A stretch of DNA of 64,000 bases, taken from assembly GCF_016026235.1 (NCBI RefSeq), contig NZ_CP065613.1; one strand, given 5' to 3'. Below the pieces are notes generated by a model that ran no database searches, was not told the origin of the DNA, and saw nothing but the letters and a program-made list of their open reading frames with translations. Both the position numbers and the translations under genes were made by a program. The stretch is from Escherichia coli. GTDB taxonomy: Bacteria > Pseudomonadota > Gammaproteobacteria > Enterobacterales > Enterobacteriaceae. Below, in pieces: positions 5,114-5,242 of this stretch. Every line of letters starts with the position of its first letter. The first letter of the stretch is position 1.

Positions 5114-5242
5114 TTTCAGAGTGATGACGAAGTGATTTATTCGACAATACGAGCAAAGGGTAATTCCCACTGGCGCTTGCCTGCTCCCCTCACCCTAACC
5201 CTCTCCCCAAAGGGGCGAGGGGACCGTCCGAGCGTTTTGATA

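Follow-up and report, generated by a model that had tools for sequence, protein, structure and literature searches.

The 64-kb stretch of Escherichia coli DNA analysed here (hereafter, the window) encodes trpS on its minus strand, and a GC-rich element lies between this gene and yhfZ, within the trpS 3′ untranslated region (UTR) and upstream of the trpS intrinsic terminator (Table 1). We describe the structure of this element, establish the family to which it belongs, document the alleles that occupy its locus across complete E. coli genomes and weigh the roles that might be assigned to it.

The trpS 3′ UTR and its tri-block element

The initial annotation of this region had placed the trpS stop at 5243 and regarded the 3′ UTR as unusually long. 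Both observations are borne out by the open reading frame and by the distance from the stop codon to the terminator stem (125 nt) and to the end of the T run (~150 nt). The 3′ UTR is long because a repeat is inserted between stop codon and terminator. The terminator is also real, but slightly offset from the interval 5093-5113 first assigned to it: its stem-loop (GAAACCGGGGAAACCCGGTTTT) runs from 5117 to 5096 on the minus strand and is followed by the T run. This stem-loop was the only structure returned by a terminator scan; the GC-rich element itself fails as an intrinsic terminator, being followed by AGCAGGCAAGCG with no T run.

The element had been described from the plus strand as a C-run/G-run near-palindrome at 5184-5223. 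The string exists, but it is one base longer, covering 41 nt (5184-5224), and its C block can pair with either G block, the 3′ block being used in the RNA fold and the middle block in the DNA fold. The description as a simple palindrome does not hold, since on the trpS-sense strand the core reads CCCTCGCCCC-TTT-GGGGAGAGGG-TTA-GGGTGAGGGG, an arrangement of three blocks. The G-rich strand is the one carried by the trpS transcript, as established from the strands of the open reading frame and the core, and its G-quadruplex motif is the sole canonical one found on either strand of the window. The plus strand of the window has a GC skew of -0.04, the G-rich trpS-sense strand being leading-sense.

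The core is embedded in a larger half element, the extent of which was defined by other genomic copies aligning to positions 4-89 of a query running from 5245 to 5120 of the window. This half element comprises a 5′ arm (ATCAAAACGCTCGGACGGTC), the core, a spacer (AGCAGGCAAGCGCCAGTGGGAA) and the heptamer TTACCCT. The 32 nt that complete the cassette (5125-5156) matched neither other BoxC copies nor the K-12 and short alleles described below.

Table 1. Features of the trpS 3′ region, in window coordinates.
Feature	Position	Strand	Sequence	Basis or remark
trpS coding sequence, 334 aa	5243..6247	-		Open reading frame; stop codon 5243-5245
Allele-specific cassette, 117 nt, between trpS TAA-T and shared flank TCATCACTCTGA	5125..5241	-		Alignments of K-12, Nissle, FCI5 and O157
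Extended repeat unit (half element), ~85 bp	5157..5241	-		Alignment to other genomic copies
Recombination homology, 43 nt	5185..5227	-	ACGGTCCCCTCGCCCCTTTGGGGAGAGGGTTAGGGTGAGGGGA	Direct repeat in O26:H11; chimeric junction in O157:H7
BoxC / PIT / TMECO "type A mm" core, 36 nt	5186..5221	- (trpS sense)	CCCTCGCCCCTTTGGGGAGAGGGTTAGGGTGAGGGG	Matches Holder 2015 Table 1
Pyrimidine (Y) block	5212..5221	-	CCCTCGCCCC	Read from sequence and folds
Purine block 1 (middle)	5199..5208	-	GGGGAGAGGG	
Purine block 2 (3′)	5186..5195	-	GGGTGAGGGG	
Canonical G-quadruplex motif (G3+ N1-7, four tracts)	5186..5208	-		Regular-expression scan of both strands
Non-BoxC part of cassette, 32 nt	5125..5156	-	TTGCTCGTATTGTCGAATAAATCACTTCGTCA	Not found flanking other BoxC copies
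trpS intrinsic terminator, stem-loop 5117..5096 and T run	5088..5117	-		Outside the repeat; common to BoxC, BIME and short alleles

Identity of the element and distribution of its family

Judged by its match to published repeats, the GC-rich near-palindrome downstream of trpS is the core of one half copy, of ~85 bp, of the BoxC repeat. Read from 5221 to 5186, the window reproduces exactly the 36-mer listed by Holder et al. (2015, PMC4666352) in their Table 1 as TMECO type "A mm" (K-12 nos 7, 11 and 15), a motif earlier named BoxC and rediscovered by Maher's group as the potential intrastrand triplex (PIT) element (PMC4666352). The core follows the tri-block layout of this family [CCCTC(T/G)CCC(C), a short loop, GGG(G)AGAGGG, a second loop that is TTA in type A and CCG in type B, and GGGTGAGGG(G)], and corresponds to type A with one mismatch. 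It also holds the HPG1 motif (GGGAGAGGGTTAGGGTGAGGG) of Kaplan et al. (2016, PMC5100583) exactly as published (dGGGAGAGGGTTAGGGTGAGGG), with the C-rich block 3 nt upstream. HPG1 is the same G-rich part, and HPG2 is its CC-loop sister; BoxC is not mentioned in that work (PMC5100583). A single element hence carries at least four names: BoxC, PIT, TMECO and HPG1.

Further genomic copies, the search for which had been suggested as a check in the initial annotation, are abundant. When 5426 complete E. coli genomes were searched with a 126-nt query centred on the element, 5424 of them had matches. The places number 87,162 in total, a genome having 17 of them in the median and 32 at most; 51 reside on plasmids and the other 87,111 are chromosomal. 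A systematic stem-loop survey, which includes BoxC among the known E. coli families, recovered 22 copies as against a published number of 32 copies, 56 bp in length. The presence of a single copy in the window (a scan with the core returned no second BoxC copy in its 64 kb) is all that would speak for a GC-rich palindrome arisen by chance and lacking relatives. Such an origin is refuted by the tens of thousands of E. coli copies, by the identity of the 36-mer to a published repeat and by the shuffling of the window, since a 23-nt core with up to three mismatches had no match in 100 shuffles.

The trpS copy shares with the rest of the family its intergenic location, here between trpS and yhfZ, and ~85 nt of flanking sequence that align with other copies beyond the core. 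All six of the other E. coli copies that were fetched are likewise intergenic (yijF-gldA, sstT-alx, cca-bacA, gcvP-ygfF, ypfG-tkt and ybdD-cstA). In these six and in the trpS copy, the aligned sequences outline a larger unit composed of a 5′ arm (AAAAGCGCTCGGACAGT), the type A core and a spacer of ~30 nt. A type A module normally has an inverted type B partner, and four of the six copies are full length in this sense: they include a second, inverted module, with GGGAGAGGGCCGGGGTGAGGG on its complement. Unlike a full BoxC, the trpS copy is a half element only: it retains arm, core, spacer and TTACCCT, the first bases of the missing type B module and a remnant of the junction, before diverging into the 32 nt of unique sequence. 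The copies at ypfG-tkt and ybdD-cstA are half elements as well.

The proposal that the near-palindrome could be a dispersed repeat of the BIME or box type was correct as regards the box type, on the strength of the 36-mer identity and of the copy number, and incorrect as regards REP/BIME. REP and BIME sequences are similarly dispersed, GC-rich extragenic palindromes that often lie between a stop codon and a terminator, but a simple regular-expression search for the REP consensus (of the GCCGGATGCGGCG...CGCCTTATCCGGCCTAC type) had no match anywhere in the window. Moreover, a mobilising enzyme (RAYT) and protein partners are known for REPs, whereas no partner is reported for BoxC in either PMC4666352 or PMC5100583. 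Full-length BoxC pairs, at ~125 bp and with ~40-nt terminal inverted modules, also resemble units of the MITE-like ERIC/IRU kind; against this likeness stand the lack of a target-site duplication at the trpS site and the small number of places on plasmids (51 of 87,162). No link of TMECO to transposons, phages or plasmids has been reported (PMC4666352).

The tri-block core extends well beyond E. coli. Species-representative genomes were scanned with the pattern GGGAGAGGGN{2,3}GGGTGAGGG, and the matches listed are environmental metagenome-assembled genomes (MAGs). Among the matches listed, the core CCCTC(T/G)CCC-loop-GGGAGAGGG-NN(N)-GGGTGAGGG appears in MAGs of Verrucomicrobia, Deltaproteobacteria, Hyphomicrobiales, Afipia and Contendobacter, among others, in many copies that often form inverted pairs and with flanks that are specific to each lineage. 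This spread agrees with the presence of TMECO in "more than 260 genomes" reported by Holder et al. (PMC4666352). By analogy with REP and RAYT, one could conceive of BoxC-type tri-block repeats as non-autonomous mobile or copy-driven sequences whose pyrimidine-purine-purine core would be recognised by an enzyme acting on single-stranded DNA, with the trpS slot serving as a structure-dependent target common to BIME and BoxC; we hold this to be improbable, and no mechanism for the spread of BoxC or tri-block repeats is identified in PMC4666352 or PMC5100583.

Alleles of the trpS slot and loss of the yhfZ-yhfS cluster in O157:H7

The interval between the trpS stop codon and its terminator was surveyed in 5426 complete E. 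coli genomes, which fall into four allele classes whose counts sum to exactly that number. The BoxC allele, with the cassette of the window (5125-5241) and yhfZ downstream, is present in 1524 genomes; a BIME with two REP sequences, as in K-12, in 1740 (at least 99% identity); and a short allele with ~15 nt from stop codon to terminator stem, as in Nissle, in 1821. The remaining 341 genomes carry a chimera, typified by O157:H7, in which trpS and its BoxC lead directly into frlR. The carriers named here have known positions in the species, namely K-12 (A), O26/O111 (B1), O157 (E) and Nissle (B2), and any inference on the ancestral state of the slot draws on these positions.

In K-12 MG1655, the slot contains no BoxC; it is filled by a BIME, a 135-nt cassette that includes two REP sequences (5499-5633 of the fetched K-12 sequence) and is bounded by the same anchors, TAA-T and TCATCACTCTGAAACCGGGG. 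The REP consensus is present in this cassette, which shows no alignment with that of the window. Because K-12 has a BIME at this position, none of its 23 copies of TMECO lies at trpS. The right flank TCATCACTCTGA is common to the BoxC and BIME alleles; the short allele has ACATTAATGCCAAA in its stead, and a different stretch of 14-17 nt in place of the cassette. The alignment of the BoxC and short alleles revealed neither a target-site duplication nor a clean relation of filled to empty site. Together with the substituted right flank, this indicates that the alleles are not related by one clean insertion. As an observation on the locus itself, unrelated kinds of repeat, BoxC and REP, replace each other in the trpS slot between E. 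coli lineages. With 1821 genomes near-empty at this position and 1740 carrying an unrelated BIME, BoxC is not required for the expression of the essential trpS gene.

The chimeric allele can be traced to a second BoxC copy. K-12 has one (TMECO no. 15) in the frlR-yhfS interval, oriented like the trpS copy of the window, and the 43-nt stretch ACGGTCCCCTCGCCCCTTTGGGGAGAGGGTTAGGGTGAGGGGA of the latter is 100% identical to this yhfS-frlR copy. Both copies are present in the O26:H11 strain FWSEC0001, where they form 43-nt direct repeats of 100% identity (1108-1150 and 8807-8849 of the fetched sequence) located 7699 bp apart and bracketing yhfZ-yhfY-yhfX-yhfW-php-yhfU-yhfT-yhfS. O157:H7 has a single copy (1674-1716 of its fetched sequence), with trpS followed directly by frlR. 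The left flank of this single copy matches that of the trpS copy at 144 of 150 positions and its right flank that of the yhfS-frlR copy at 143 of 150, the comparisons with the wrong flanks yielding background values of 30-44 of 150. As its flanks show, the O157:H7 junction arose through precise recombination or slippage between the two copies of BoxC. The direct repeats and the chimeric flanks imply that the 7.7-kb yhfZYXW-php-yhfUTS cluster was deleted in the O157:H7 lineage; the deletion appears as one class of alleles (341 genomes) and may go back to one past event. Providing homology for recombination is the one demonstrable effect of BoxC at trpS, and it operates at the DNA level.

Holder et al. 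found TMECO loci to be more rearranged than control loci and considered recombination between distant TMECO sites possible "in principle" (PMC4666352). Their main text does not mention frlR, yhfS or O157, and trpS and yhfZ do not appear in its main text or supplementary tables as consulted here, where the frlR-yhfS copy is listed (PMC4666352).

Some further features of the region were noted in passing. The yhfS-frlR copy of BoxC is immediately followed by a REP sequence, both in K-12 (frlR-yhfS) and in O157:H7 (1717-1790 of the fetched sequence). In the window, yhfW (1216-2442, minus strand) is a pseudogene, with a TGG-to-TAG amber change at codon 133 relative to K-12 (2044-2046). In the close relative FDAARGOS_943, yhfW is split by an IS5-family element, yhfU is truncated beside an IS1, and yhfT, yhfS and frl are missing. 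It seems that the yhf cluster is undergoing decay in several lineages.

Candidate roles and interpretation

A role at the RNA level would have a hairpin or an RNA G-quadruplex in the trpS 3′ UTR act as a barrier to 3′ exonucleases or as a processing site, as REP stabilisers do, thereby modulating trpS mRNA stability or yielding a 3′-UTR-derived small RNA (sRNA). The strand is appropriate, the G-rich one being the transcribed sense strand, and a canonical G-quadruplex motif is present. In the minimum-free-energy fold of the 36-mer RNA (-19 kcal/mol), the C block is perfectly paired with the 3′ purine block, with one G-U pair. The corresponding slot in K-12 holds REP sequences, and REPs are known mRNA stabilisers. 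The predicted folding is, however, not exceptional for its composition: compared with shuffled sequences of the same high GC content, the z-scores are -1.6 (core), -1.0 (unit) and -0.45 (cassette). Further downstream, the hairpin of the terminator already shields the 3′ end, the 1821 genomes with the short allele lack the element at the slot, and no Hfq-type module is specific to it.

Flanked by a stop codon and an intrinsic terminator, the element is positioned like 3′-UTR-derived sRNAs such as those of the MalH and CpxQ type, and a terminator-ended fragment could arise from it. Contrary to these sRNAs, though, the trpS element is not conserved as a transcript unit and is absent in most strains. 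A search of Rfam 15 with positions 4900-5400 of the window returned no relevant match at E≤10, the best overlap being a eukaryotic antizyme frameshift element that scores 20.9 bits, whereas its gathering score is 40; BoxC is not represented by any Rfam family. Over the whole window there were no Rfam matches at gathering level, and a tRNA/tmRNA scan found none. A full-text literature search yielded no record of a trpS 3′-UTR sRNA, and a literature search for work on PIT/TMECO after 2015 found none beyond Holder 2015. The two functions entertained in the initial annotation thus gain no support, the stabilising structure because one third of E. coli genomes are near-empty between the trpS stop codon and the terminator, and the sRNA because neither Rfam at E≤10 nor the literature offers a counterpart. 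On balance, we judge an RNA-level role to be unlikely.

A second possibility, put forward by Kaplan et al. for HPG1 and HPG2, is that of a structural switch in the DNA, alternating between duplex, hairpin, intrastrand triplex and G-quadruplex and regulating replication, or transcription (for instance through a roadblock that separates trpS from yhfZ). In vitro, the identical 36-mer forms a triplex by CD and NMR, with a Tm of 74 C (PMC4666352), and the sister motif HPG2 has hairpin and G-quadruplex (G4) signatures (Kaplan et al. 2016, PMC5100583). In our DNA fold, the C block pairs with the middle purine block (-8.6 kcal/mol, z -2.4). With respect to trpS, the G-rich strand is also non-template, and judging from GC skew it is the lagging-strand template; both orientations favour transient folding. 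The duplex is nonetheless preferred whenever the complementary strand is present, and DMS footprinting in vivo detected no triplex and no protection (PMC4666352). In the tests of Maher's group, to the extent that they are related in PMC4666352, PIT elements had no promoter or terminator activity and no effect on replication or polymerases in vivo. The genes flanking TMECO show no functional or positional bias (PMC4666352), and the element is absent from the trpS locus in two thirds of genomes. Nothing at the trpS locus supports regulation of the kind proposed for HPG1, and we assign a DNA switch even lower odds than an RNA-level role.

We favour instead, with a probability of about 0.8, the interpretation that this copy of the BoxC family is a passenger in the trpS 3′ UTR, a dispensable piece of DNA that lengthens the UTR and that served as a recombination site in O157:H7. 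Situated in the variable stretch that separates the trpS stop codon from its terminator, the BoxC half copy is transcribed along with trpS as passive 3′-UTR sequence, any hairpin that it forms in the mRNA being presumably redundant with that of the terminator downstream. The 43 nt of perfect homology with the yhfS-frlR copy allowed recombination or replication slippage to remove the 7.7-kb cluster in O157:H7. We infer that BoxC serves no regulatory role of its own at trpS, although trpS mRNA decay or read-through into yhfZ may be affected by it. The extreme conservation of the core and the occurrence of the same core in distant phyla argue against the passenger interpretation, being hard to square with purely neutral DNA.

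The trpS element is of a kind already known, and it brings no new biology at trpS itself; its annotation should read BoxC repeat, rather than a new 3′-UTR regulator or sRNA. The four-allele polymorphism of the trpS slot and the loss of yhfZ-yhfS in O157:H7 as a BoxC-by-BoxC deletion are small additions to what was described in PMC4666352 and PMC5100583, the latter event being an actual case of recombination between two distant TMECO sites, which Holder et al. raised only in principle.
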